Shown: piece by piece, positions 4,809-63,159 of the stretch
Numbering within the stretch: the first letter of the stretch is position 1
Layout of the letters: every line of letters starts with the position of its first letter
DNA from: Leptolyngbyaceae cyanobacterium
GTDB lineage: Bacteria; Cyanobacteriota; Cyanobacteriia; Phormidesmidales; Phormidesmidaceae
NCBI GenBank assembly: GCA_965263355.1
Contig: CBDHHL010000032.1
Coordinates: 1,472,001 to 1,536,000 of the forward strand
Reading direction: 5' to 3'
DNA: 64,000 nt
Notes under the pieces: model-generated
The model's input: the letters and a program-made list of their open reading frames with translations, nothing else
Databases searched by the model: none
What the model was told of the DNA's origin: nothing
Program-made: the position numbers and the translations under genes

Positions 4809-5408
4809 TCAACCCGCCATTGAGTCGTGCCGAAACTCGTAAAACTTAAGCTTGCTATGAATGTTTTTCACATGTTTTTTGACTGTATTGACAGTAATAA
4901 ACAACTCAGCTGAAATTTCCTTGTAGCTGCGATCTGCCCGTCTCAGCAACCAAATCTCAGCCTCACGAGACGTTAAACCATACTTTTCCGCCTCTGTAAC
5001 CGCCAAGCTTTGAATAGAACGATGCTGATCCTCTAAAAGAATCAACACCAGCGGATGTTCATAAGCATCTAACTGCAGCCACCGGGCTCGAATCCGTAGT
5101 ACACTTAATCGCTTGTCACCGATTTCAGACTCAATCACCACAGGATTTTCAGGATATAGCTCACAGCTATCCAAAACCGCCTGATAGATTCGCTCAATTT
5201 CTCGGCTTATGTTCTGAAACTGGGTTTCATTGTGCGTAAACTTTTCAAGAACTTTTCGAGCATTGCTATTGATGTGAACAAACTCGCTCTGTTGGTTCAG
5301 AATCAAAATACCATCCATAAACCCTTCCAGCACCCCCTGCACTAAAACACTATCGAAATGACCACTATGAGTATTTAAATTTTTAAGTGCTTCTACGAAA
5401 GTATCCAT
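4809..5408 (-). CDS. LuxR-type HTH regulator with PAS-like N-terminus
   Basis: LTSREAEI..SYKEISAELFITVNTVKKHVKNIHSKL; N-terminal LEGFMDGILILN; GGAG RBS before ATG 5408. Confidence 0.9.
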   Translation of the reverse strand: MDTFVEALKNLNTHSGHFDSVLVQGVLEGFMDGILILNQQSEFVHINSNARKVLEKFTHNETQFQNISREIERIYQAVLDSCELYPENPVVIESEIGDKRLSVLRIRARWLQLDAYEHPLVLILLEDQHRSIQSLAVTEAEKYGLTSREAEIWLLRRADRSYKEISAELFITVNTVKKHVKNIHSKLKFYEFRHDSMAG

Positions 5409-5631
5409 CAGGCAGACTTCTCCTTGTTTTAACCTTGACCACATCCAGGACCAGGGCATTGCCGCAGAGAAAACGACAGGTTGAAACTTGGACGTGGTTT
5501 ATAAATCTGCTGCAGAACAGCACCATTTATTGGTAGGTGCAGGGCATTTCAGGCTATGCAGTTTGATCAAAAAAGTCTTACACAAAATAAACCCAAGTTC
5601 ATTTAAAAAATGACACTATGGGTTTAGTCAG

Positions 5632-5720: not shown

Positions 5721-6224
5721 TCAAGCATTATCCTCTACAGGGGTGCATTCAAAAATGCGGTAGTGCTCATTGTCGTCTTTAATGACGGTTACGAATACAT
5801 CCACTTCTGCCTGAGTATTATCTTCTGCCTTGAAGGTTACACAAACAACAGTGCCACCATTATTTGAACCTATCAGCTTTGATCCAATTCGCTGTTTTAA
5901 CCCACCTCGATCTTTAGTATATTTCTCCCATTTTTCTTTGATTGTAAGTGGGGTTATCTCTTTCTGCTTAGAATAATCCAGCATATCCCAGGCCAACCCA
6001 TAATGGTCTTTACTTAGTTCATAAAAAAACTTTTCAGCGACCAATCTAGTAATCCATGGTTTCTCATTATCATCATTGTTTGGAAGCGATAGCTGAAACA
6101 TGTCTTTTGTGTCTGCCAAAATATTAAGCGTATTTTCGTCAGGGATCAGTCGATTGATCCATGGCCGTTCACCATTACCATTTTGGGGCCTTCTTACTCT
6201 TTCTTTCTTAAATCGCTGAAGCAT
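5721..6224 (-). CDS. Hypothetical protein with DUF3887-like C-terminal domain
   Basis: AGGAGG RBS; AEKFF..L....Y..AW..L......IT...IKEKW pattern. Confidence 0.55.
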   Translation of the reverse strand: MLQRFKKERVRRPQNGNGERPWINRLIPDENTLNILADTKDMFQLSLPNNDDNEKPWITRLVAEKFFYELSKDHYGLAWDMLDYSKQKEITPLTIKEKWEKYTKDRGGLKQRIGSKLIGSNNGGTVVCVTFKAEDNTQAEVDVFVTVIKDDNEHYRIFECTPVEDNA

Positions 6225-6473: not shown

Positions 6474-8909
6474 TTATTGTTTCTTAATGGAATTCAGGAC
6501 ATACGTCCAAAATATGCACGACGGAAACAACCAGGGCAGTAAAATATTGGCCCAAATGTATGTTTGCAAACCAATTACCCCATAGGTAACTGTGGCTACA
6601 GCAAAGAGCCACATATATCGCTGATAATATGAAGCTTGCTGATGGTTTAATGTTAATGCCGTCCATTTTCCCAGGAGTGTTGCGGCGAAAATCATCCATA
6701 AATCTGGAATTCGGATAACTCGATGGGACGCTAATAAATGATGTGTTGTATAGGCGTGGAGTTCTCCCCCTGTAAGAGATTTAGGACAACTTTCCTGGGC
6801 ATACGCCCGCCCGTATTTCAAATCGCACCAATATTGTAATGCTGGTAGTATGGTACGTTTGTCCTGGGCGTCATAATACCCCCCAGCAGCGATGATGGCG
6901 ATTTGCTGATTAAACTCCTGCTGAGTACCTGCGTTATCTAACAATTGCCAAGCAGGAATACGTTTGTAAACGTAATCTGGTGGAATGGAATAATCAATAA
7001 CAACGGGCAAATTAAAGGGGGACTTAGCTTTTCTGAGAAAAGAATACGGAAGACCTTCTTGATTTATATCTAACCGATTAAGGAAAACATTTAATTGTTC
7101 TTGAAAGATACCTCGACTTTGCAAACTTGGCTGGGGAAGATCGGGCAATTCCTGCTGATTTAATATCTTTGCCAGTGACAGCATGTAGGCAAATGGACAG
7201 ACTTCAGGACATGTAGCATCAAAAGGTAGCTTTACTTGCCAATAATGGGCATAAACGTCCCCATTCAAGCTCCACATGGGACTGGCAATTTTCTCGTGTA
7301 CTCGCAGGTCATCCCGTTCCATTGAACCAAAAACCAACCACACCCCCTGCTGCTGAACCGACTGTTGAACAACAGTTGCCAGTTGCTCTTCTTTTGATTT
7401 TTCTTCATCCAAAAGGTAGTCTATACCAATGATTTGAATGCCGGAGTCTGAAAGCTGCTGAATTAAGTCAGCCAGATACCCACGATCCATGGGCTGATGT
7501 TGAAACCCTTCCAGCTCATTACGAGCCCGATTAATCGATTCTTGATCGATGGCAATTAATAGCACAGGGGAGATATCGTTCTGAGGAATTTGATTGGTTA
7601 TATTACGGTATAAAGCCTGTGACCAAATCCGTCTGTTTAAAAGTTCTAGCCCTAGATCCTTCAATGGTGACCATGGAGCAGAGCTGGAAAACGCAAGCAA
7701 TATTGCTGTTGTAAAGACAACGGCTTCTTGTCTTGTCGGCCACCATTGGTGAAGCTGCTTTTTCCAACCAAACGGGGTGATCCGATAAGCGATCGCACCA
7801 GAAGGACTAAAAAATGAAGGGATTAGGTGCGTGGAAGGATAGGTAAATTGTTCGACAAATTGGAGATGATGACTGGCTGTCAATAAGGCACTATGAATAT
7901 CTTGGTGCTTCGCTAATTGCTTGCAGAGAGGTTTTAGAAAACTCTGGGCGACATCGTTACGAATGGGCTCGCGCATAACCACCACCTGTAGTCCCAGGGC
8001 AACTAATGAGTTAGCAATGCTAAGACCACTGCAGGAGTTAAAAATCGCTAGCTGGAGACCATTTTCCCTGGCTTGGGTTAAATATTCTTCAATTTCACTA
8101 ATGGACAGGGAGACATTGGGGGTAATGGCTATGCGCCCCCCAGTTGCAGCTGTTTCGTCGCTGTGTCCCGCAAAAAATAGCACATCCCAGCCACGGCTAT
8201 CACAAATTGTGTTGGCAAACGTTTGTTTAATGGTGGTAACACTATCCTCCGGTTGCCAGGTAAATTGTTCAACATGGGCAATGGATCGGAGCGATCGCAC
8301 CGCCTTCCAATCTTCCTGCAGCGGCAGATTCGGATCATTGCCCAAAACCGCAAGAATTCGGGCCTTCGTCCCTCGAACTCTCTCCTTAGAACTCAAGGGA
8401 GCCTCGGGTTCATCCATCGCCGTGCGCACAATCCGCAACCTATCAGGCGGGAACATGTCTGCATTTAAAGCCAATAGCTCCCAAGGTAGCCTGGCTATTT
8501 CATCAGAATTGCAGGCCAAAAACACATCTACCCCCGGTTTTATAGCAGGGTTAGCATTCATCTGAGTGAGCTGGGCTAACTCGTCTTGAATGCGTTGCTG
8601 AATAGTACGCCCATCGTTGTCGCCTAACCAGCGTTGGAACCCCTTAACCAATTCTCTTTCGGCCTCTGTTAGATCATGAGCCAGATCACCTGAACCAGGG
8701 TTAAGCCGACCGCTATTACCAGGGGACTGGGGCGCAGAGAATTTATAAAACCTGTGATACCGTTGTCGCCAGAGTTGATAAGACTTTTGCAAATCGCTAG
8801 GATAGGGCAAACTAGCCGTCAATTTTTTGCTGCGATTATCCCAAAGCAACAAAAGAAAACATGATCGCTCATCTTGATGCCAAACTTTTAATTCAAAAAT
8901 TGTACGCAT
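6474..8909 (-). CDS. CHAT (caspase-family) + TM + CHASE2 + 3TM membrane receptor
   Basis: RLPWELL, FFAGHS, IFNSCSG (His/Cys dyad intact); TM near residue 400; CHASE2 motifs LIAIDQES, MDRGYLADLI, IGIDYLLD, GGELHA; C-terminal TMs. Confidence 0.9.
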   Translation of the reverse strand: MRTIFELKVWHQDERSCFLLLLWDNRSKKLTASLPYPSDLQKSYQLWRQRYHRFYKFSAPQSPGNSGRLNPGSGDLAHDLTEAERELVKGFQRWLGDNDGRTIQQRIQDELAQLTQMNANPAIKPGVDVFLACNSDEIARLPWELLALNADMFPPDRLRIVRTAMDEPEAPLSSKERVRGTKARILAVLGNDPNLPLQEDWKAVRSLRSIAHVEQFTWQPEDSVTTIKQTFANTICDSRGWDVLFFAGHSDETAATGGRIAITPNVSLSISEIEEYLTQARENGLQLAIFNSCSGLSIANSLVALGLQVVVMREPIRNDVAQSFLKPLCKQLAKHQDIHSALLTASHHLQFVEQFTYPSTHLIPSFFSPSGAIAYRITPFGWKKQLHQWWPTRQEAVVFTTAILLAFSSSAPWSPLKDLGLELLNRRIWSQALYRNITNQIPQNDISPVLLIAIDQESINRARNELEGFQHQPMDRGYLADLIQQLSDSGIQIIGIDYLLDEEKSKEEQLATVVQQSVQQQGVWLVFGSMERDDLRVHEKIASPMWSLNGDVYAHYWQVKLPFDATCPEVCPFAYMLSLAKILNQQELPDLPQPSLQSRGIFQEQLNVFLNRLDINQEGLPYSFLRKAKSPFNLPVVIDYSIPPDYVYKRIPAWQLLDNAGTQQEFNQQIAIIAAGGYYDAQDKRTILPALQYWCDLKYGRAYAQESCPKSLTGGELHAYTTHHLLASHRVIRIPDLWMIFAATLLGKWTALTLNHQQASYYQRYMWLFAVATVTYGVIGLQTYIWANILLPWLFPSCIFWTYVLNSIKKQ

Positions 8910-8965
8910 CTCACTGTAGTTAGAAATTCAGGAATTAATATCGTCTTTATGGCGTTGTTAGCATC

Positions 8966-10285
8966 TTATTCTAAGATAGCCGAGTCAAAACTATAGGGGT
9001 CTAATGGCAACACTTGCCCTGTCGGTGAAACGATAGTCGCGACAAGCTCTGTACCCTGCTTAGCCTCGGCGCGAACATACAGTAACTCCGTATCTAGGGA
9101 ATCTTCTTCTTCTTTTACACTACCCATGGGATCAACCACACGCAGTTTGAGACCATCCGGCAAGAACGTCCCCATCTGGTTCCTTAAAATTAGTAATAGG
9201 GACCAAACCGGAGCCGGTGAGGCCCAAGCAGCTGCATAAATTTGCAAAAGCTCCCCTTCGTATTCAATGGTTTTGAAGACAGGACTTAGCTGAGCAGGAA
9301 TATCCATGCCCTGATACCTGAGTTCTTCTATGGCAATGGTGAACCGATCGCTGGAGCGAAATTCTGGGGTGCCGGTCCCTAACATTGAGAGCGAATACCA
9401 GCCTAACTGCTGAGATACTTGGTCTAGCTCGGCCCGGAGCCACTGGGCGGTGTTAATGGTTTGTCGAGTTAATCGGGTAAAGATTTCTGCAATTCGGACC
9501 CGCAGGGATGTTGGCTGTTCTGACGATTGTTGCCACTGATAGAGCAGGTTTAGTAATTCAGAATTTTGCAGGAGTGCTGCGCCTTGTTCCCAAGGCAAGA
9601 TTTGCCAGAGTCGTTGTTCAGACGACTGTAGGTGAGACAAGAGGGCATTCAGGTCAGTCTGGGTTATTTGGCTGGAATCAGTCTGGGAGGTAACCCTGGG
9701 CAACGTAATCGCCGCAGTGTCTAAAAAGCGTAAATTAAACAATAGGTGATTGGGTTCAGCATCAAACAAAAAACAAGGAAACCCATAATTCCAGCTATCA
9801 TCAGCCGATAAATTCATCCGTTGTCGGTAGCTAACTAATTGATCATAACGTCCATAGCCCCGAATGATCACCTGTGATAGTTCCTCCTGCACTTCAACCA
9901 CCACATAGAAATGGGCGGCAAATTCAGGTAGATCAATGGCTGCCCTTGGTATGGTTATCTCTTCATTTAGCCAATTCTCAGTGGCAATCAAACATAGTTT
10001 GAAACCACCTATCCATAGATTAAAAACAGCCTCAATGGCATTAGCATAATGAGGTTGAGCGAGAGAACACTGTGCTTGATTGAGAGAAATGCGTGAATCT
10101 TGTTCAGACAACCACTGGGTAAATCCCTGCAGACCAAGGGTATTTAAGTAAGTTTGCCACTGACAGGCTTCCCCAAGTACCTGGTTACTTATGTGAGTTG
10201 CTTGCCCAAAGCTATCGGATTCTAGATCAATATACTCTGGTTCGAGCAGTCTCAAATCATCAAAATCAATCACAGCACATAGCAT
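8966..10285 (-). CDS. DUF1822 family protein
   Basis: WQTYLNTL, KLCLIA, IPRAAIDLPEFAAHFYVVVEVQEE, INTAQWL, LPDGLKLRV. Confidence 0.85.
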   Translation of the reverse strand: MLCAVIDFDDLRLLEPEYIDLESDSFGQATHISNQVLGEACQWQTYLNTLGLQGFTQWLSEQDSRISLNQAQCSLAQPHYANAIEAVFNLWIGGFKLCLIATENWLNEEITIPRAAIDLPEFAAHFYVVVEVQEELSQVIIRGYGRYDQLVSYRQRMNLSADDSWNYGFPCFLFDAEPNHLLFNLRFLDTAAITLPRVTSQTDSSQITQTDLNALLSHLQSSEQRLWQILPWEQGAALLQNSELLNLLYQWQQSSEQPTSLRVRIAEIFTRLTRQTINTAQWLRAELDQVSQQLGWYSLSMLGTGTPEFRSSDRFTIAIEELRYQGMDIPAQLSPVFKTIEYEGELLQIYAAAWASPAPVWSLLLILRNQMGTFLPDGLKLRVVDPMGSVKEEEDSLDTELLYVRAEAKQGTELVATIVSPTGQVLPLDPYSFDSAILE

Positions 10286-10299
10286 TTTCTGAACTCCTT

Positions 10300-11751
10300 T
10301 TATCTCTCTAAGTAGTAACGTAATCGTTGAGCATATAAACTATCCATGGAATGGCTTTTGGCTGTTTTTATTTCTGCGATCGCCGCCTGAAATGCCTCGG
10401 CATCCACAAAGGCTTCGATATGCTGCATCAAATTCGTTAAGTAATCTGGATCTGTGGATATCGTCGCCAGCTTAAGACTAGTTACCTTAGCCGAGAGAAT
10501 TTGAAAAAACTGCTCTACGGTCCAATAACGAACTCGTTTGAGTAATGTAGTTGGATTGAGCACACGACTCACCTGGGATTGATTGGTCATCCCCAATGTA
10601 TCAGCGATTTTACTTTGAGATTGCCTCTGAAAATAGACAAGCTTTAAGATTGCCTTCACCTTGGATGCAAACCTTGCATATCTTGGCCGTTGGTGCAGGC
10701 TATTAATATGTTCGCAGATGCCTTGGTTGATCCCCCAATCTAAACACTCAATTAACTGCCGATGACAAAATTCCTTGAGTTCTTGCTGGGCGATCTGCTC
10801 TAAATCATTAGTTGAATTGGGATCACAAAGCTCTCGTTGGGCACCAGAATCAGGATTGGCCAGGGGTTCGGCTTGGGGCATGCCATTACTACTCCAGATT
10901 GCATAATGACGCAAGAGCTGGCCAATTTGCTTAAGCTCTATGGGTAGCTGTGTCGGTGAATTAAATGTAATTCCCTCTGTCTGCAACTGTTGTTGCATTT
11001 CGTCAAGCTGGGCCAGGGTCGGTGCAGGGCACTTCAGATGGTTTTGCTGTTGCTGGCGTCGATCTCGACGGTAAACCGCATGAAACGCTTTGACAATGAG
11101 ACATTCGCGCAGTGAAAGCTTTTCTAACTGATGTTGCCGAGCCCGATTAAGCAGGGCCCAATCACTTACCTTATAAAATCCTCGTTCTGATAATACTTTT
11201 TTTAGCTCTTGATTTTGTCGAATTTGGAGATGAACCCAGTTATCTAGACTGGTTACACGTTGTCCATTTGGATTAAACTTGCGCAATACTTCCACCGAGA
11301 ACAGTTGATAAGAAGACGGCTCCCGTTCACCATTACGATTAATAACCCATTGTTGTTTATCATCTTGATCTAAGACAACTTGCGTCTCACCATCATCATT
11401 GAGCACGTAAGGGAGCAAATCTCGATAGGTAAGCTGCCCAGTGGCAGAAAATTTACTGGCAAGGATTTTGCACGCCGCCAAAATGGGATACGAAACATAT
11501 GCTCGCAAGCACAGTCCCGCTTTGGCTTGATGCTGTAAATCAACCACATCGGATTGAGCTGTAAATTGATTGTGAAGCAACTTCTGAACAATGCGATTTC
11601 GCTGAGCAGCAGGTATGCTCGCCTCCATCAGATCGGCAAACTCCGTCTGAAAGAATTGGGAGGCTAGGGGTGACGATTGCTTCCTATAACCGCATCCTTT
11701 ATCCCCAGGATCAATTCTCAAAATTTCCCAATATTTCGATAGAAGCCCCAT
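10300..11751 (-). CDS. Divergent sigma70-like / HTH DNA-binding protein
   Basis: sigma2-like FNP..SLDNW, sigma3-like PTLAQLDEM, sigma4-like ILKLVYFQRQSQSKIADTLGMTNQSQVSRVL. Confidence 0.6.
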   Translation of the reverse strand: MGLLSKYWEILRIDPGDKGCGYRKQSSPLASQFFQTEFADLMEASIPAAQRNRIVQKLLHNQFTAQSDVVDLQHQAKAGLCLRAYVSYPILAACKILASKFSATGQLTYRDLLPYVLNDDGETQVVLDQDDKQQWVINRNGEREPSSYQLFSVEVLRKFNPNGQRVTSLDNWVHLQIRQNQELKKVLSERGFYKVSDWALLNRARQHQLEKLSLRECLIVKAFHAVYRRDRRQQQQNHLKCPAPTLAQLDEMQQQLQTEGITFNSPTQLPIELKQIGQLLRHYAIWSSNGMPQAEPLANPDSGAQRELCDPNSTNDLEQIAQQELKEFCHRQLIECLDWGINQGICEHINSLHQRPRYARFASKVKAILKLVYFQRQSQSKIADTLGMTNQSQVSRVLNPTTLLKRVRYWTVEQFFQILSAKVTSLKLATISTDPDYLTNLMQHIEAFVDAEAFQAAIAEIKTAKSHSMDSLYAQRLRYYLER

Positions 11752-12167
11752 AATTCCACTATTCCTTCGGTGGACTTATTTTCTCAAACTCGACTGATTG
11801 TCTCTAGTACCCCAATGGGTACTATCTCTGGCTATGGCTATTCCACAGGCAGTCAACCTGCTTAACCCAGATAGTTGTATTCAAGCATACCTGCTGGGAT
11901 GGCTTCTATTTTCTGGAGTCAGGCTAGTTGAGTCTCTTTGCTGAAACGGCCATTAGCCATCAGTTATTGCCCACCTTGGCGATGGTACTGTTATAAACAC
12001 CATGAAATTATTGGGACTGGTTCCGCCTGATGGGATGATTCAGCCAAAATGCTTGTAATGCAAGGGATACAGCCGTTTTAGAAGAAGCTCGCTCAAATCG
12101 TTACTCTATAGGCCTTTCAGGCATTTTTCCCATTACACGGAACCAGTGCCCCTGCCTTTCCTTCGCT

Positions 12168-13054: not shown

Positions 13055-14662
13055 ATGCGCAAATTTCATTCCTATGAAGAAATAAACAAAAAACTGCATT
13101 ATTATGTTCCCCGCACTGCCCTGATTGAGCAGATTTATCAGGGGTTGTTAGGCGATGATCCCAACTATGGTGGGTCTTACATTACCGTATGGGGCCCCCG
13201 TCAGTCTGGAAAAACCTGGATTATGCGGGAAGTCATTGAGCGGTTTAGCAATCGAGATAATTCAGAGTCACCGTTTGACGTGGCCATGCTAACGATGCAG
13301 GCAGGCCAAACGATAACTACCGATACAGAAATTCTCAATCTATTTCGACAGAAGTTAAGCCAGTGGTTTGATCGACCCTTGCCTTCCCTGGACGAATGGT
13401 CAGCTCTAGAGACGTTTCTTTCACATAAATCTTTTAGCAAACCCTTAATTTTAATTCTGGATGAGTTTGACTCCATTGGAGATGATTTTATCAACAAATT
13501 TGCCAATCAATTTCGACATATTTATACGAGTCGTTTAAATCAACGAGATAAAAAAAGTGATGAGAAATATTGTTTGCTGCATGGTCTGGCGCTGATTGGT
13601 GTCCGCAGTGTGTTGGGTGTAGAAAATGTTGGCAGTGGTTCTCCATTTAACGTGCAACGCAGTTTATCCATTCCCAAACTAACCTTTAAAGAAGTGGACT
13701 CCATGTTTCACTGGTATGAACAAGAAAGTGAGCAACCTGTTGAGCAGGTCGTGATTGATCGTATTTTTTATGAGACTCAAGGACAACCAGGACTAGTGGG
13801 TTGGTTAGGAGAACTTCTTACGGAAAAGCCGCTTAATCCAGACCGTAGCCAGCCAATCACGGTCTCTCATTTTGAAAGGGTTTATGCATCTGCTATTTAT
13901 GACCTACCCAACAACAACATTTTGAACTTAATTAGTAAAGTTCGACAAACCCCATATCGCAATTTTGTTTTGAATCTATTTAATACGGAAACTGCGATCC
14001 CATTTTCCTACGATGATGAGATTATTAACTATCTATATATGAATGGTGTGGTTGATCGCCAGGTTACGGTAGATAACCGTCGCTATGTTAAATTTACTAG
14101 CCCATTGGTACAAAAACGGCTGTTTAACTATTTTTCCCGTAATTTGTTTCAAGACCCTCATCAACTCTATCCACCGTTTACTGACCTGTCGAACGTGATT
14201 ACGATAGATAGTTTGAACGTAAAGAATCTGCTGCGGCTGTATGAACGCTATCTGCAAACAAATCGCACCTGGCTCTTGGCAGATGCCCCCATGCGGAAAG
14301 ATCTACGTATCTACGAAGCGGTTTTTCATTTTAATTTGTACAGTTATCTGCAGGCATTTCTCCAACCTTGGCATGGTCACATTTATCCTGAGTTCCCTAC
14401 AGGCAATGGTCAAATCGATCTGCTAATTACCTATCAAGGACAACAATATGGTATCGAGGTAAAAAGCTTCCAAGATGAGCGCAGCTACCAGGTAGGCTTA
14501 GCCCAATCAGTTTGCTATGGTAAACGATTGGCCCTAAAAGAAGTAGTCCTGGTTGCCTTTATTGAACAGGTGCCTGATTCTATTCGTCAGAAATACGAAG
14601 CCCCTTATCTAGATAAGGAAACAAACATCACAGTATTGCCCATTTTTGTGGTGACGGGTTAG
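13055..14662 (+). CDS. AAA-like ATPase with C-terminal PD-(D/E)XK nuclease
   Basis: GPRQSGKT, LILDEFD, SPFN, TQGQPGLV; C-terminal PEFPTGNGQIDLLI..GIEVK. Confidence 0.85.
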   Translation: MRKFHSYEEINKKLHYYVPRTALIEQIYQGLLGDDPNYGGSYITVWGPRQSGKTWIMREVIERFSNRDNSESPFDVAMLTMQAGQTITTDTEILNLFRQKLSQWFDRPLPSLDEWSALETFLSHKSFSKPLILILDEFDSIGDDFINKFANQFRHIYTSRLNQRDKKSDEKYCLLHGLALIGVRSVLGVENVGSGSPFNVQRSLSIPKLTFKEVDSMFHWYEQESEQPVEQVVIDRIFYETQGQPGLVGWLGELLTEKPLNPDRSQPITVSHFERVYASAIYDLPNNNILNLISKVRQTPYRNFVLNLFNTETAIPFSYDDEIINYLYMNGVVDRQVTVDNRRYVKFTSPLVQKRLFNYFSRNLFQDPHQLYPPFTDLSNVITIDSLNVKNLLRLYERYLQTNRTWLLADAPMRKDLRIYEAVFHFNLYSYLQAFLQPWHGHIYPEFPTGNGQIDLLITYQGQQYGIEVKSFQDERSYQVGLAQSVCYGKRLALKEVVLVAFIEQVPDSIRQKYEAPYLDKETNITVLPIFVVTG

Positions 14663-17600
14663 ACTGCGTCCTCTTCACATAACGCCCGATCTTCTTCTGC
14701 AATCTCAGGACTGGTGCGTAGGTAATCAGCAAGCCAACTGCAGGCTAGCTCTAGTTCATCCAATGCCAGAATCCGATCTAAATGCCAGATAATCGCTGTT
14801 TGGTCAGCACTCCCCGACACTAAAAACGTACCGTCGGGGTTAAAGTCGGTAAACTCAATTTTACTGGTGTGACCATAGAGTGTGTTCAACAGCTTACCTT
14901 CGACAGACCAAAGCCTTACCGTTTGGTCAGCACCGCCCGAAGCGACAACATCGCCATTGGGGCTAAAGTCCACGTCGTATACTTCTCCCCCATGGCCTGT
15001 TAATGTAGTCAACAAATCGCCATTTGTCTGCCACAGCTGTACCGTACCATCCCAATTGGCAGTGCCAACGGTTTGCCCATTGGGGCTAAATGCAGGAATT
15101 ACTGCCCCTGCGTCCAAGGTGGCCAGCAGCGTATCATCCAATTGTTTTAGCGCGACCTGATTATTTTGTTGGGCAACGGCCAGTTGTTGACCATCATTAC
15201 TCAAATCCAACCCTAAAATGCCATAGGGTTGTTTTACTGTTTGCAATCTCTCACCAGCCATATCCCAAAGGCTGACATTGCCTTTGATACTACCAGAGAG
15301 CAGGGTTTCTCCATCCGGAAGGAAACGCACCGCCATGACTGAGCTAGTATGTCCACTGAGGGTTTTCTCTAGTTCACCCGTTTGAGTGTTCCAAAGCTTA
15401 ATGGTGCTATCGCTAGACCCCGATGCCAACCGCCGTCCATCGGGACTAAACGCTAGGGTAAAGGCCCGAGCCGTATGGCCGATCAACGTTCTAATGCGTT
15501 GACCATCAGGCTGCCATAGATTTATAACTCCATTTGTATGGGCAGACGCGATGGTTTGGCTATCGGGACTGACCACCACTTCAAAAACCGGTGATGATGA
15601 TGTCAATACGGTCTTGAGGGGATGCCTGAGCTGCCAAACCCGAATGGTTTTATCTTCACTGGCAGAGAAAAGCTGTTGTCCATTGGCACTAAAGACAACG
15701 TCGTATACCCCTCCCTGATGTCCTGCCAATACCTGTAGTAAACGTCCCTGGAGGTCCCAGAGTTTGATGGTGCCGTCAGCACTGGCCGAGGCAAAGATAT
15801 CTCCATCGGGACTAAACTGTAGATCCCTAACCCAGCTATCATGGGCCTCTAGGGTGATTTTTTCGGTAACCTGTTGAGTGTTTTGATCCTGTTGCCAGAT
15901 CTTGATTTTGCCATCGGCATCCCCAGAAACAAGAAATTGACCATTGGGGCTAAAGGCAATCCCATAGGTGGCACTTTGATGCCCTTTCAATGTGGTTAGC
16001 GGTGTGCCATCTGAGCGCCATAGGCGCACCGTTTTATCCTGGCTAGCGGAAACGAACCGTTGACCATCGTAGCTAAAGCTTATATTGACTGCAGTCGCCT
16101 CATGCTCCCTCAGGGTGGCGGTGAGCTGCCCCTGATGGTCCCATAGGCGAATGGTGCCATCTGAGCTGGTGGAGGCCAAGGTCTTACCATCGGGGCTAAA
16201 ATCAACCGAGTAAAGTTCGGCGGTATGACTTGCTAATGTAGTTTGCAGATTTCCATCTGGATCGTACAGGCGGATTTTACTATCTTGCCCACCCACGGCA
16301 ATACGCTGTCCATCGGGACTAAAGCTGACTTTGACATAGGGAGAGACATCCCCTTCGCGAGTACTCCATACCAAGGTGCCATCCCGTTTCCAAAGCTGAA
16401 TATCTGTGGTGCCCCCCACTGATACCAAGGTTTGTTCATTAGGCCCCCAGTCTAGACTCCAGAGACCGCTGGCCGCTTCTGAAAAGCGGTTGATTTCTTG
16501 TGCATCGTAGATGGCCTGGTTTAAGGTGTTTTTGGCTTGGGCTATGAGGGGAGGTGGAGCCGCCTGGTCAAGGGTTTGCAGTCGTCGGGTCGCTTTGATG
16601 CTATAGATCAATGCGTCCAGCGTTTGGTCAGAGGCCACATTGCCCTGGGCCGATGAAATCAGGGCCGTCACCTCACTGATTCTAGCCTGTTGTTCACTGG
16701 CCACCGCCCGACGGTATTGTCGCCAAGCAAACATCAATATTCCTAACAGTACAATTGAAAAGACGCCCAAACCGCCTAAAATTAGACGCTGCCAACGGGC
16801 TAAAATCTGTTCTTGCTGAAGTTTATCTTCTAAAGCCTGGACCCTCTCCGCTTTAAGTTTGGCTTCACTTTCGTTGCGATCGCAGGTTTGGCTAGCCGTC
16901 AAAAACTGATAATCAGCATCGCTCAAACGTTTGCCTTGGGCCCAGGCTTGGGCCTCTAGTAACGCCTGTCCTCGCAAAAGCCGTGACGTATCTGTCCACT
17001 CAGAAACCTGCCAACTGGTGAAGGACTGGGCATAGGGACGAAGATTGTGTAGTTGTTGTGTTACCCAGTTTGAGTCAAACACAGCCTGATAGATCGGATT
17101 TTTAACCCTTAATTGCCCCTGCTCGCTGACTACTAAACCAGATAACAACAGTTCTATATGTTCGATGGAATGATTGACAGTGACTGCTGGACCGGGATGC
17201 TCAGGCTCACAGGCCGCTAGGACTTGTTGATATTCACTCAGGAGACGACCAGCCAAATCATTTTGGCGTAGGATGCGATCGCAAATAGTTCTCAAATGCT
17301 CCGGTTCATCCTGGGTTTCCCAATGGTCAATAATCTGATCATAAACAATTTGAGCAACCCAATCAACATCAGGCAGTTCGGTATCTAGTGATATCTGACT
17401 GGTATTGACCACCAATTGACAGAGCTTTTGAGTCAAAAACGGTTGTCCCCCAGTCCAGTCCAAAATGGCATGGAGAATACTGTTGGGATCCCGTTCACCC
17501 ACGAGTAACCCCGTTGCCAGGTGTGAGGCTTCTACTCTAGAAAAGCCATTTAAGGTCACCGCAGTTCCAATATTAAAGGGGGTGCGCGTTTTATCTCGAA

Positions 17601-18189
17601 TGAGCGCAGCGGGGGTAACCACCCCAAACAGGGCAAATGTTATCCGTTGAAACTCAGGCACTAATGCCCGTTGGTTATAGCAATACCGCACCAGGGCAAA
17701 GAAATCATCCACCGCAAATGGCAAGGACAGGACACTGTCAATTTCATCCACCATGATGAACAAGTTTTGCTTTGGCAGTTGTTTGAGTAACACATCACTC
17801 AAAAATCGACTCAGACGTTGCAATAAGGGAATATCCCGCTGCTGTTGCCACCAAGCTTGAAAATCTTCTAGGGAAAAATTAAAGGGTGTATCGTCCAGCA
17901 ATCCACTAATAAGCTCTCCCAAGATGCCCTTATACCATTGTGACGGTGTGATGATCTCAGTACCTATCGTACTCATATCTAGGGTGAGACATTGATGACC
18001 GTCCTGATGCAGCCGTTTTTTAGTCCTGACTAACAGCGACGACTTCCCCATCTGTCGCGTATTGAACACATAGCAAAATTCTCCCGCTTGCAGTTGTCGA
18101 TAAAGATCTTCATCTGCCTGACGTACCACGTAGGTTGGATCATAGTTAGTTAGGGTGCCACCAATCTGGTAACGCATCGGGTATTGCAT
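14659..18189 (-). CDS. AAA_35-like ATPase + TM + WD40 repeat protein
   Basis: RQMGKSS, MVDEID, TPFNIG, WTGGQPFLTQKLC, TM ILGGLGVFSIVLLGILMFAW, about 14 WD40 repeats. Confidence 0.93.
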   Translation of the reverse strand: MQYPMRYQIGGTLTNYDPTYVVRQADEDLYRQLQAGEFCYVFNTRQMGKSSLLVRTKKRLHQDGHQCLTLDMSTIGTEIITPSQWYKGILGELISGLLDDTPFNFSLEDFQAWWQQQRDIPLLQRLSRFLSDVLLKQLPKQNLFIMVDEIDSVLSLPFAVDDFFALVRYCYNQRALVPEFQRITFALFGVVTPAALIRDKTRTPFNIGTAVTLNGFSRVEASHLATGLLVGERDPNSILHAILDWTGGQPFLTQKLCQLVVNTSQISLDTELPDVDWVAQIVYDQIIDHWETQDEPEHLRTICDRILRQNDLAGRLLSEYQQVLAACEPEHPGPAVTVNHSIEHIELLLSGLVVSEQGQLRVKNPIYQAVFDSNWVTQQLHNLRPYAQSFTSWQVSEWTDTSRLLRGQALLEAQAWAQGKRLSDADYQFLTASQTCDRNESEAKLKAERVQALEDKLQQEQILARWQRLILGGLGVFSIVLLGILMFAWRQYRRAVASEQQARISEVTALISSAQGNVASDQTLDALIYSIKATRRLQTLDQAAPPPLIAQAKNTLNQAIYDAQEINRFSEAASGLWSLDWGPNEQTLVSVGGTTDIQLWKRDGTLVWSTREGDVSPYVKVSFSPDGQRIAVGGQDSKIRLYDPDGNLQTTLASHTAELYSVDFSPDGKTLASTSSDGTIRLWDHQGQLTATLREHEATAVNISFSYDGQRFVSASQDKTVRLWRSDGTPLTTLKGHQSATYGIAFSPNGQFLVSGDADGKIKIWQQDQNTQQVTEKITLEAHDSWVRDLQFSPDGDIFASASADGTIKLWDLQGRLLQVLAGHQGGVYDVVFSANGQQLFSASEDKTIRVWQLRHPLKTVLTSSSPVFEVVVSPDSQTIASAHTNGVINLWQPDGQRIRTLIGHTARAFTLAFSPDGRRLASGSSDSTIKLWNTQTGELEKTLSGHTSSVMAVRFLPDGETLLSGSIKGNVSLWDMAGERLQTVKQPYGILGLDLSNDGQQLAVAQQNNQVALKQLDDTLLATLDAGAVIPAFSPNGQTVGTANWDGTVQLWQTNGDLLTTLTGHGGEVYDVDFSPNGDVVASGGADQTVRLWSVEGKLLNTLYGHTSKIEFTDFNPDGTFLVSGSADQTAIIWHLDRILALDELELACSWLADYLRTSPEIAEEDRALCEEDAV

Positions 18190-18350: not shown

Positions 18351-19481
18351 GTGACAGGAGCCGATTACCTGCACAGGGGTCCTTACTGTATATCTGTTAT
18401 GAAGTCTGCAATATTTAATGCTTGTGATGCAGCTGAATTTGAGTCGATAACGCCTGCAACGATTCAATTGTCAACGGCGGTTATGGACAAAATAGTGGAA
18501 CAGTTTGCTGTAACCGTATCTGACGATGGCAAATGGCAAGCCTGGTTAAATGTCATTGCCAGGATGGCCGTTATCCAATGGTTGCAGACTGGGCTAATGC
18601 CCCCGACCCCCGTAGTCGATGTCGACAATACTCACAATACGATTCTCTATGTTGGTGAACATCGTCTGTGTGTGCTGGCGATAGGCACCATCAGTACTCC
18701 GTCCATAGAACTGCCCCTAACCACATCGACGGGCACGCCTGCCGCTCAGTTTTACCTGCTGGTGGAAGTTTATGAAGAGCTAGGCCAGGTGAACCTTATC
18801 GCCGGCATGCGTCACGATCAGTTGCTGGCTAAACATCCGGTATTAACAGAAAAGCGCCACACCATGCTTTTGTCCCAGACAGTGGTGGTGCCATTGAGCC
18901 ACTTTCAACTGACACCTGAGCAATTGTTGCTGTATTTAAGTTGTTTGTCTCCCCAGCCAGAACCTAAACTGTTGACAGCGCAACTGATTGATGCTAGCCA
19001 ATGGTTTCGTAAGCAATTGGATGCGGTATCCTGTCAACTTGCTTGGGCGTTGTTACCACCACCAGTGCTAGCAATGCGTTCTGTACAAATTATGGCTCAC
19101 AGTCTTTTGGAGAGATTGGCAACCCAAGGGATTACGCTACCTACCTGGGCCAAGGGTGCGGCGGGTCCCATGCAGATTGGGACGACTACCTGTGAATTGT
19201 ATACCTGGGTGTGGCCACTGATGGGCACTGATGAACCGGAGTGGAGTTTGTTTTTAGTGCTGGGACCGGCAGCAGGAGAGACTCTGGTGGAGGGGACAGA
19301 GCTGACTGTGTGGGATATGAGAAAGGTATTGGCTCGGACAACTGTGGGGTGCGATCGCACCTATTTATACACCCAGGTCATCGGCACCTGGCAGGAACGA
19401 TTTTGGGTACAGGTAACTATCCCTGGAGAAGCGCAAGTAATATTGCCTGGTTTTTGTTTTGGTGAATTGAATGATGATTGA
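18351..19481 (+). CDS. DUF1822 family protein (start possibly 18399)
   Basis: WQAWLN, HRLCVLA, AQFYLLVEVYEE, IDASQW, YLYTQVIGTWQERF. Confidence 0.8.
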   Translation: MTGADYLHRGPYCISVMKSAIFNACDAAEFESITPATIQLSTAVMDKIVEQFAVTVSDDGKWQAWLNVIARMAVIQWLQTGLMPPTPVVDVDNTHNTILYVGEHRLCVLAIGTISTPSIELPLTTSTGTPAAQFYLLVEVYEELGQVNLIAGMRHDQLLAKHPVLTEKRHTMLLSQTVVVPLSHFQLTPEQLLLYLSCLSPQPEPKLLTAQLIDASQWFRKQLDAVSCQLAWALLPPPVLAMRSVQIMAHSLLERLATQGITLPTWAKGAAGPMQIGTTTCELYTWVWPLMGTDEPEWSLFLVLGPAAGETLVEGTELTVWDMRKVLARTTVGCDRTYLYTQVIGTWQERFWVQVTIPGEAQVILPGFCFGELNDD

Positions 19482-19610: not shown

Positions 19611-20495
19611 TTGTCTATGCGTTATCATCTTGTGAATAACTCCAAGCACCCTTGCACTGGCCTATTTAGCTTGATTACCACAGCTGTACTACTACCCACT
19701 AGTACGGTTACGGCAATGACTGCCGAGCGTCAGATCAGGACGTTCTCAGGAAATTTGAATTCAAATTTTAAGGTGGTACTGGCTGATTATCAGACGCAGC
19801 AAACTAGCCAGCAGCAAATTGTCAAAACTAACAAAGCAGAAAGTACGCAATCAGAGGAAGCTGAGCGACTGAATCAAGAGGGAATCAAGCTTGCTGATCA
19901 ATCTAGATATTTAGAAGCACTAGAGCGGTTTGAGCAATCACTATTAATTCGACAGGAGATTGATGATCAGCGTGGCATTGGAGAGTCAATTAATAATATC
20001 GGATTCATCCACTCTCGTCTGGGTGAGTATGAAAAGGCATTAGAGTTTTATGAGCAATCGTTAGTGATCTCAGAAGAGATTGATGATCAGCGTGGCATTG
20101 GAGAGTCACTTAATAATATCGGATTCATCCACTCTCGTCTGGGTGAGTATGAAAAGGCATTAGAGTTTTATGAGCAATCGTTAGCGATTCGGCAAGAACT
20201 TGACGACCGTCGTGGCATTGGGGAAGTACTCAACAATATCGGTGGTATCTACGATGAACTGGGTGAACATAGAAAAGCGCTAATTTTCTATGAGCAATCG
20301 TTAGCCATTCGGGAAGAGATTAATGATCGTCGTGGTACTAGCGAAGTACTCAATAATATTGGCAGTGTCTATTCTCGTTTAGGTGAGTACGAGAAAGCAT
20401 TGGAGTTTTATGGGCAATCGTTATCGGTCTACTATTCGCGATATTGCCGATTGGTCATTGGCAAATGTGGACTTGGTGGTGTTGAGTGCTTGTGA
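19611..20495 (+). pseudogene. TPR protein, apparently 3'-truncated
   Basis: 40-aa TPR units (GESLNNIG..YEKALEFYEQSL); the last repeat breaks into unrelated sequence (SVYYSRYCRL..). Confidence 0.65.
19956..20184 (+). repeat. 120-bp-period intragenic tandem repeat
   Basis: 19956-20064 and 20076-20184 are nearly identical; more diverged copies follow. Confidence 0.9.
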
Positions 20496-20779
20496 AACAG
20501 GTCTGGGGGGTTTTGACAATATTGGCTAGGTGGTGGACAGTCGTTAGTAGTCAGATCAATATCATTGTGATTACGGATACCGTTATTAAGCTGAGAAAAC
20601 TATAAGGAATAGTACAGTGCCACGATGGAGCTACAGGGAACTCCCCCCAGGAGCAGCTGGTCATAATTACATAAATAGCCTGCTTTGAGGGGTAGTAATC
20701 AAACAAACATAGTAGTCTGTCAAGTTCACAATTTTGAGTTAAGACGGTGAGTGGTGAGTATAGTTAAGAGGCGCGTAAG

Positions 20780-61680: not shown

Positions 61681-63159
61681 ATGGGGCAATCCGTAAGAGC
61701 GTCAGAAAAGGGGCTTGCGATCGCAAACCAGGCCCGTCAACGCCGAGGCTGGACCAAAACCAGCACTGCCCGCTGGTGGCAAGATGCCCATACATCCAGG
61801 GCTACCCTACGACGCTTTTGGCGGGGTGAACGGATCCAACAAGACACCTTTATTGCCATTTGTCACACCGTCGGTCTTGATGATTGGCAAGCCATAGCCG
61901 AGCTATCCGCTGATGAATTTAAGCATGAGCCAGGGTTGCAACCAGTTCAAATTGATTGGGGAGAGGCTCCCGACATTGAACAATTTTATGGTCGTGGGCA
62001 AGAGCTGCAACAACTACAGACCTGGATACTGACAGAAGCAGCAAAGTTGATCACCATTAGCGGTTTAGGAGGGAACGGTAAAACCACCCTGGCCTTAGCC
62101 CTAGCCGAACAACTACAACCAGAATTTGAAGGCATCATCTGGCGTTCATTGAGTACGCTGTCGTCTCTCCATAGACTACTCACTGACTTAATTGATGCAC
62201 CGGTAGAAACTGTTGATCAAGGCGTGCGGCAGCTGCTGCAAAAGATGCAGAACCGCTGGCTAATTGTTTTAGACGATATCGATGTCGATCAGCCTGAACC
62301 TTACTTAGAGTTTCTCCATCGAATTTCTCATTCTCGTCATCGAAGTTGTGTACTGGTTATTAGTCGCCAGCCCTTACCCGCTCAATTTCAAGTCTTAAAT
62401 CGAGCCCAACAGTTATCACTCTCTGGGTTATCTGCCGATGCTGCAGCTCAGCTGTTGCAAGCCTATGGATGTAGTGGTCAACTCTATCAGCTGAAAACCC
62501 TGGCCCGCATCTACGGCTATAGCCCCCTGGCACTAAAGTTAGTGGCTGCTACAATTCAAACGGTTTTTGGAGGGCAGATAGCCACCTTTTTAGCGCAAGA
62601 AACCGTTATTCTGCCAGATCCCATAGGCGCACTCTTCAAACAACAGTTTGAGCAGCTTGAGCCCTTCGAAACAACCTTGATTTTTTGGTTAGCTATTTGG
62701 CAAGAACCCATCTCTTTATGTCGGTTAAAAACTCACTTGCTCAATGCCAATTCGGCGGAGATAATGGCTGGCATCTCTAGACTAGTACACTGTTCTTTAG
62801 TCACCCGACATTTTCTATCAGATCAGCCATCGTTTAGTCTTCAACCCATGGTGATGGCTTGGGCAGTTGATGAGCTAGTTGCCCTGATTATGCACGAGCT
62901 AGCTCAGGGGCAAGAACACCAAACGATTCAGAATTTTCACCTGCTGAGAAGTCACTGTCTGATCCGCCCTGGTACGGATGATATTCTGGGTGATCGAATC
63001 CTAACTACTTTGCGAGAAAGCTATCAGACAAAAGATTTTCAGCCGTTGTCAAGTTTTATGGATAGCTGGCTTCAGCAAGCTAAACAAGAGCCGCCAAACA
63101 GGCTGGGTTATCTGGCGTTTAATTTAACAATCCTCAAAAATATGCTAGTAAATAGCTAA
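61681..63159 (+). CDS. N-terminal HTH + NB-ARC (STAND) protein without C-terminal repeats
   Basis: SRATLRRFWRG, DWGEAP..FYGR, GLGGNGKT, LIVLDD, PLALK. Confidence 0.88.
   Translation: MGQSVRASEKGLAIANQARQRRGWTKTSTARWWQDAHTSRATLRRFWRGERIQQDTFIAICHTVGLDDWQAIAELSADEFKHEPGLQPVQIDWGEAPDIEQFYGRGQELQQLQTWILTEAAKLITISGLGGNGKTTLALALAEQLQPEFEGIIWRSLSTLSSLHRLLTDLIDAPVETVDQGVRQLLQKMQNRWLIVLDDIDVDQPEPYLEFLHRISHSRHRSCVLVISRQPLPAQFQVLNRAQQLSLSGLSADAAAQLLQAYGCSGQLYQLKTLARIYGYSPLALKLVAATIQTVFGGQIATFLAQETVILPDPIGALFKQQFEQLEPFETTLIFWLAIWQEPISLCRLKTHLLNANSAEIMAGISRLVHCSLVTRHFLSDQPSFSLQPMVMAWAVDELVALIMHELAQGQEHQTIQNFHLLRSHCLIRPGTDDILGDRILTTLRESYQTKDFQPLSSFMDSWLQQAKQEPPNRLGYLAFNLTILKNMLVNS

Follow-up and report, generated by a model that had tools for sequence, protein, structure and literature searches.

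Closest to the locus described here are a gene neighborhood catalogued by Kaur, Iyer, Burroughs, and Aravind (eLife 2021; PMC8195603) and a regulatory cascade established at the bench in Anabaena PCC 7120 (Xing et al. 2022; Hu et al. 2026; PMC9457339; PMC13342950). In the former, proteins that join EACC2 and caspase domains to transmembrane (TM) segments and a CHASE2 domain adjoin genes for a sigma factor of the extracytoplasmic function (ECF) type and a DUF1822 protein, and self-cleavage was proposed. In the latter, a membrane-based cascade free of CRISPR, the CHAT protease HetF cuts PatU3, the inhibitor of the sigma factor HetZ; the name HetF does not occur in the text of Hu et al. 2026. Our locus occupies positions 6474 to 11751 of a 64,000-nucleotide stretch of DNA from a Leptolyngbyaceae cyanobacterium (contig CBDHHL010000032.1, positions 1,472,001 to 1,536,000; hereafter the window, to which all coordinates refer), and encodes a divergent sigma-like protein, a DUF1822 protein, and a membrane protein with CHAT and CHASE2 domains. 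Its gene arrangement is not new, having been described by Kaur et al., and there is precedent for the set of genes and for this type of mechanism alike; the novelty that a first-pass annotation of this sequence had claimed for a CRISPR-independent cascade is overstated.

We propose, with a probability of roughly 60%, that the trio is a protease-gated transcription switch, in which the DUF1822 protein would hold the sigma-like protein until the CHAT domain cuts it after Arg310 and the sigma-like protein is freed. New relative to the published picture are a specific predicted cut site, a proposed split of tasks between the domains of DUF1822, and a lead on a possible kinship with PatU.

Results

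A conserved gene trio

The three genes are as follows.

6474-8909, minus strand: membrane protease-receptor gene (open reading frame of 811 aa), with an N-terminal domain, CHAT, one TM helix, CHASE2, and three TM helices
8966-10285, minus strand: DUF1822 gene (open reading frame of 439 aa), predicted inhibitor and adaptor
10300-11751, minus strand: sigma-like gene (open reading frame of 483 aa), encoding a divergent sigma-70-type protein

The open reading frame list of the window agrees with the first-pass description of three co-oriented genes separated by gaps of 14 bp (sigma-like gene to DUF1822) and 56 bp (DUF1822 to receptor), and a survey of gene neighborhoods, which that annotation had suggested as a check, found the order kept. 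A scan of GTDB genomes returned 351 stretches with a relative of the sigma-like protein, and 79 of these 351 loci were analyzed. By a fixed rule, 75 of the 79 have DUF1822 following the sigma-like gene, an adjacency that argues against a chance pairing; the loci scored as lacking it comprise two at a contig edge, L060, in which a DUF1822 gene is visible (bringing the count to 76 of 79), and L059, in which the absence is real. A CHAT gene occurs in 51 of the 79 loci and in 44 of the 53 with at least 6 kb of downstream sequence, in some cases several kilobases away or on the opposite strand. Among the 14 closest loci, a CHAT-CHASE2 gene follows DUF1822 directly in 11; two others run into a contig edge, and the gene is missing from L007. 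Several paralogous trios can occur per genome. The genomes nearest to the window trio are Leptolyngbya/Adonisia-like, and named relatives of the sigma-like and DUF1822 proteins are all cyanobacterial, bar one apparently mislabeled entry.

A candidate cut site in DUF1822

The predicted site lies at the end of a loop of the DUF1822 model (residues 301 to 310) in which the predicted local distance difference test score (pLDDT) is 59.

9353-9358, minus strand: codons of Arg310-Ser311, where a loop modeled with low confidence ends and the cut is predicted

Arg occupies the corresponding alignment column in 107 of 119 close homologs and in 96 of a de-duplicated set of 103 drawn from several clades, placed in a linker of variable length whose overall Arg content is 8%. 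Seven of the 103 sequences have no Arg in the column; in two loci (L008 and L012) it is Leu despite an intact protease dyad, and L244 has none. Cleavage of PatU3 by HetF has been mapped between R117 and S118 (Xing et al. 2022; PMC9457339). PatU proteins retain their Arg in 141 of 144 cases, and the median number of residues that follow is 142 in PatU versus 133 in DUF1822.

Some 115 residues separate the predicted cut from the sigma-binding domain, and one cut alone would therefore not remove the inhibitor; a second step would be needed, as has been discussed likewise for Csx30 (Strecker et al. 2022). The earlier suggestion that cleavage frees the sigma-like protein has thus gained a candidate site in Arg310, but a single cut would leave the sigma-binding N-domain intact.

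Fold of DUF1822 and its predicted contact with the sigma-like protein

The DUF1822 assignment comes from a family model (Pfam PF08852, E 5.4e-48, above cut-off). In the structure model (pLDDT 89.6; predicted template modeling score [pTM] 0.86), a flexible loop joins an N-domain of nuclease-like fold to an immunoglobulin (Ig)-like C-domain. The model contains no TPRs, and the description of DUF1822 as a TPR protein was rejected for this family member.

9701-10237, minus strand: DUF1822 N-domain (residues 17-195), restriction-endonuclease-like fold, predicted sigma-binding end
8978-9292, minus strand: DUF1822 C-domain (residues 332-436), Ig-like beta-sandwich, putative protease-docking end

Complex prediction supports the association between the sigma-like protein and DUF1822 that the first-pass annotation had assumed: the interaction prediction score from aligned errors (ipSAE) is 0.74 versus 0.35 for the best of three controls, at least 57% of contacts agree between runs, and the partners have a pLDDT of at least 80. 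Of 157 solved complexes 116 attain the ipSAE mark, as do 2 of 215 mismatched pairs, a calibration that is only roughly valid here, where our own alignments were used. The predicted interface is confined to DUF1822 residues 7 to 193, that is, to the N-domain side.

The position of this interface, entirely N-terminal to the cut and without the sigma-4 recognition helix (residues 391 to 398), which is not listed among the contacts, is what would be expected if DUF1822 were a helper whose N-domain stays on the active sigma factor, perhaps in contact with DNA by way of the nuclease-like fold, the cut removing only a blocking or tethering C-domain; the N-domain indeed has the fold of DNA-binding nucleases. 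Against such a role, the analogs PatU3 and Csx30 are inhibitors, and the interface touches residues 95 to 109 of the sigma-like protein, next to what is likely, if the regions are correctly assigned, the polymerase-binding helix of sigma-2. We regard a helper as distinctly unlikely.

The same fold raises the question of defense. The N-domain model has the PD-(D/E)xK core, protease-activated effectors are common in defense (Evans et al. 2025), and Kaur et al. class such neighborhoods as conflict systems (PMC8195603), so that the cut could unleash the N-domain as a toxin, with the sigma-like protein as an accessory. However, the alignment, read without superposition and therefore an indirect guide, shows no pair of acidic residues conserved on the strands of residues 85 to 103, where the PD-(D/E)xK site is expected, and the conserved acids at residues 131 to 135 fall inside the predicted sigma interface. 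A defense module is the least probable of the explanations that we weighed, and very improbable.

DUF1822 is present in 127 of 201 genomes sampled across the phylum, some weak matches being proteins with the N-domain only, and ten genomes searched closely have 2 to 16 matches each. In three loci from small genomes of the phylum, of about 2 Mb (L240, L241, and L243), the N-domain alone is fused to long acidic tails, and no sigma or CHAT gene was seen within 1.5 kb upstream. At L242, L244, L081, and L225 the sigma position is held by a compact ECF-like sigma factor or a helix-turn-helix protein, and in the first two of these the DUF1822 N-domain is replaced and the C-domain and CHAT gene are retained. 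The window itself holds a second DUF1822 gene (18351-19481, plus strand; Pfam E 1.2e-15), which has no sigma-like gene upstream and retains an Arg-Ser motif in its linker. It is followed by a TPR gene (19611-20600, plus strand) and then by a CHAT-like remnant in a different frame, so that the two look like one broken TPR-CHAT gene.

The sigma-like protein

At the sequence level the sigma signal of the 483-aa protein is weak and confined to region 4 (Pfam E 0.027; SigBFG E 7.7e-5); the score on TIGR02937 is 13.3 bits, below the cut-off of 42.9. The assignment comes instead from profile and fold comparisons. HHalign joins the protein to a paralogous clade (97.5%, E 4.9e-12, 255 columns) whose members score 99 to 105 bits on TIGR02937, and the structure model (pLDDT 85.8, pTM 0.53) resolves three domains.

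11179-11610, minus strand: sigma-2-like domain (residues 48-191) with a beta insertion, from the model and fold searches
10885-11166, minus strand: middle helix-turn-helix domain (residues 196-289), main predicted DUF1822 contact
10513-10788, minus strand: sigma-4-like domain (residues 322-413), followed by a helical tail, from a weak sequence match and the fold

The first 16 Foldseek matches of this model, a comparison recommended at the outset, are all sigma factors, none of them at E 1e-3; the DUF1822 model likewise has no match at that threshold. Computation thus supports sigma-70 ancestry and a sigma fold, and of the sigma-2, -3, and -4 motifs first read from the sequence, a sigma-2 domain, a middle helix-turn-helix, and a sigma-4 domain stand in the model, whereas the sequence itself gives only the weak region-4 match.

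The failed TIGR02937 match, the lack of any solved relative in a sequence search of known structures (best E 0.039), the large insertions, and the pTM of 0.53 would also fit a former sigma factor, now a DNA-binding regulator or decoy controlled by the same cut. Yet sigma-2 and sigma-4 are both kept, HetZ is equally unrecognizable and nonetheless a true sigma factor, and the sister clade retains a bipartite motif upstream; we find such a loss of the sigma function quite improbable.

The membrane protease-receptor

Both named domains of the 811-aa protein were identified above the family cut-offs.

7860-8579, minus strand: CHAT domain (residues 111-350), Pfam PF12770 E 5.1e-9
6681-7649, minus strand: CHASE2 sensor domain (residues 421-743), Pfam PF05226 E 1.7e-15

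The sequence features that the first-pass annotation described for this protein were borne out, with a qualification on its membrane helices. Its catalytic dyad is intact, with His249 (codon 8163-8165) in an AGHS motif starting at residue 247 and Cys293 (codon 8031-8033) in an NSC motif starting at residue 291, and both residues are kept in all 72 aligned proteases, 5 of which are HetF; since similarity to the window protein decided which 72 rows were included, inactive copies at greater distance may have escaped notice. The Pfam matches include neither a kinase nor a cyclase family, and no TPR family. The arrangement of one TM helix, CHASE2, and three TM helices also stands, the helices being moderately hydrophobic: no 19-residue Kyte-Doolittle mean reaches 1.5, and the peaks, 1.38 (residue 396), 1.15 (736), 1.35 (768), and 1.42 (787), lie where CHASE2 receptors have their TM helices. 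Averaged over 16 receptors, the peaks are 1.56, 1.42, and 1.73. The approximately 110 residues before CHAT, in the EACC2 position, align across 67 relatives and HetF, and our scans gave no EACC2 profile match. Receptor and HetF are homologous over 309 columns (HHalign 99.2%, E 1.7e-19), with a HetF profile built from only five similar rows.

Just N-terminal to CHAT, Arg108 is conserved in 53 of 67 receptors, and no other nonstructural conserved Arg stood out. This residue could serve the autoproteolysis put forward by Kaur et al. (PMC8195603), in which the receptor cuts itself and uncut DUF1822 serves as an adaptor that keeps the sigma factor tethered at the membrane up to the release of the receptor fragment, and a two-ended DUF1822 is compatible with a tether too. 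Self-cleavage would, however, leave the near-invariant Arg in a variable DUF1822 loop unexplained, and the substrate of the homologous HetF is a separate protein. We consider autoproteolysis unlikely.

Covariation of the two ends of DUF1822 with their partners

For 24 hand-picked trios with a co-oriented downstream protease, we compared identity matrices and trees. The Spearman correlation is 0.89 between the DUF1822 N-domain and the sigma-like protein and 0.79 between the C-domain and CHAT, as against 0.27 to 0.37 for the cross pairs. In the sigma and N-domain trees, clade B stands apart from the rest (support 100/100), whereas in the C-domain (94/93) and CHAT (100/100) trees a "WDQ" clade groups with clade B, the switch falling between about residues 216 and 275 of DUF1822 in one chimeric lineage. 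Tree and identity patterns fit DUF1822 ends that are each matched to a partner. Linkage alone, however, would give the same picture; the pattern is supporting, not decisive.

Possible kinship of DUF1822 and PatU

Direct comparison of PatU, gathered via hetZ loci, with DUF1822 is not significant (HHalign 0.3 to 6.3%; HMMER likewise in several set-ups), and no region of PatU aligned to the DUF1822 N-domain. With a deeper PatU profile, from a search yielding 239 proteins of which 150 served solely to deepen it, the last 50 residues align with DUF1822 in a stable register, at scores reached by 1 and 3 of 60 block shuffles. By reading of the list, 13 of the 19 best sub-threshold matches of this profile in a local set are DUF1822 proteins, related to one another. 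In the ESM Atlas, DUF1822 is the first family-bearing match of a PatU query (0.84), and PatU clusters come first for DUF1822 residues 300 to 439 once DUF1822 clusters are excluded (0.79); both values lie under the 0.9 line, and they count as a single source of leads. Shared ancestry of the two C-domains appears, on balance, probable, and we offer it as a lead. The octapeptide pattern of the PCC 7120 PatU3 cut site occurs in 0 of 121 genomes. Our literature search, which most subscription papers lay outside, found no experimental test of this module and no report tying DUF1822 to PatU.

Upstream DNA and neighboring genes

Two further features flank the trio.

11806-11823, no strand: 18-bp perfect palindrome (7-4-7), a putative operator or part of a promoter, lying 54 bp upstream of the sigma-like gene
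4809-5459, minus strand: LuxR/GerE-type regulator gene downstream of the trio (Pfam GerE E 8.5e-9)

The palindrome is the sole such site in the window when up to two mismatches are allowed, and it precedes the sigma gene in 13 of 15 loci of the window's clade versus 0 of 71 others. Its pattern recurs at further intergenic sites in all 10 genomes searched, which points to a regulator of broader reach as its likely binder. All 11 loci with the palindrome, which come from one clade, have the LuxR-type gene, as against 0 of 49 without it; the gene is a conserved companion of that clade, and its product may bind the palindrome. Other LuxR paralogs have the palindrome beside them in only 1 of 16 loci, a weak lead. 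A reading of the palindrome as a CsoR/InrS operator, which it resembles, was rejected, the site being absent at five of five CsoR-family loci, and a literature search found no match. One genome (G355, that of L009) has about 29 sites of the pattern versus 2 to 7 in the nine others, some in closely spaced runs, and these are possibly a repeat element. In three of five Nostocales (L122, L123, and L124, from G002, G001, and G004) the palindrome lies 470 to 850 bp upstream of a distant HetZ-related gene; it was not found at the other two such loci checked.

Sister clades have a different, bipartite upstream motif, found by pattern in 47 of 86 upstream regions. This candidate promoter, TGCAT-A-A-G with a spacing of about 12 bp (CATCTATT), lies upstream of the sigma-like genes of L014-L079 and L084-L096. 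That the upstream motif tracks the sigma-4 recognition helix, which would have been evidence of autoregulation, was rejected because clades with different helices have the TGCAT-type motif in common.

A small DUF3887-like open reading frame (5721-6224, minus strand) lies between the receptor and LuxR-type genes; L002 has a homolog above the Pfam cut-off at the same place, and other relatives have unrelated open reading frames there. Convergent genes for an AAA_35-like ATPase (13055-14662, plus strand) and a protein with a large N-terminal domain and WD40 repeats (14659-18189, minus strand) adjoin the module, and a helix-turn-helix and NB-ARC gene lies at 61681-63159. Neither Cas7-11 nor a CRISPR array was recognized by eye in the open reading frame lists of the window, no dedicated repeat search having been made.

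Discussion

The switch that we favor would begin with the CHASE2 domain, which would sense an outside signal and activate the cytoplasmic CHAT domain. The N-domain of DUF1822 is predicted to grip the sigma-like protein, and its Ig-like C-domain would dock on the protease and present the Arg loop. Cleavage after Arg310 would take off about 130 residues, upon which the sigma-bound N-terminal fragment would be degraded or loosened, and the freed sigma-like protein could join RNA polymerase and transcribe its own set of promoters. Paralogous trios in one genome would act as separate channels because each DUF1822 end is matched to its own partner. If this is true, DUF1822 gains a function and a named cut site, and many cyanobacteria have several unrecognized sigma factors under caspase-like receptors.

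The window trio shares with the neighborhood in Kaur et al. (PMC8195603) an N-terminal caspase fold (CHAT, with its dyad), a C-terminal TM and CHASE2 sensor, and adjacent DUF1822 and sigma-type genes, the sigma factor being named there as the output. That study, in the excerpts available, proposed self-cleavage, called DUF1822 a TPR protein, and named neither substrate nor site; our models instead give DUF1822 nuclease-like and Ig-like folds with a candidate site.

Type III-E CRISPR offers another parallel, as the CHAT protease Csx29 cuts the sigma inhibitor Csx30 of CASP-sigma in a flexible loop, as predicted for the window trio, and the N-domain of Csx30 binds sigma while its C-terminal part is required for cleavage, much like the predicted N-domain contact and putative C-domain docking of DUF1822 (PMC10028731). 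In contrast to the membrane-bound window receptor, which has no TPR match, Csx29 is a soluble TPR-CHAT protein activated by target RNA via Cas7-11 (PMC10028731). Csx30 was not among the fold matches listed for the DUF1822 model. In Myxococcus xanthus, the ECF sigma factor DdvS is likewise under the control of a CHAT-containing membrane protein, DdvA, but there CHAT is extracytoplasmic and belongs to the anti-sigma factor itself (PMC6061681).

By analogy, HetF-PatU3-HetZ is a closer model for the window trio than type III-E CRISPR. The two have in common a homologous membrane CHAT protease, an inhibitor gene, putative in the window trio, right after the sigma gene, an unusual sigma-type protein with insertions, and an Arg-Ser about 140 residues from the end of the inhibitor, where PatU3 is cut and DUF1822 is predicted to be; no CRISPR takes part in the HetF pathway. 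They differ in that HetF has periplasmic TPRs rather than CHASE2 and that hetF does not adjoin hetZ-patU in the loci examined. Nor are the parts orthologous: the 811-aa receptor has no NCBIfam match to the HetF model NF045509 at E 0.1, on which true HetF from five genomes scores above 1359 bits, and the 483-aa protein has none to the HetZ model NF037963. Close kinship of HetZ with the sigma-like protein was also rejected, the best HHalign value being 40.7% and confined to the sigma-4 region. Five Nostocales genomes have a second hetZ copy (hetZ'; L117-L120), with no PatU match at the four loci examined.

We tentatively suggest, as a somewhat doubtful extension, that DUF1822 and PatU are versions of one swappable, two-ended cyanobacterial adaptor that grips a sigma factor at one end, has a loop to be cut at Arg, and docks on the protease by its Ig-like other end, in which case HetF-PatU-HetZ would be one specialized branch of a set of insulated receptor-protease-sigma channels rewired by crossover inside the adaptor gene. 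In conclusion, the trio is a real, conserved, and already catalogued module that most likely works like HetF-PatU3-HetZ without being its ortholog.

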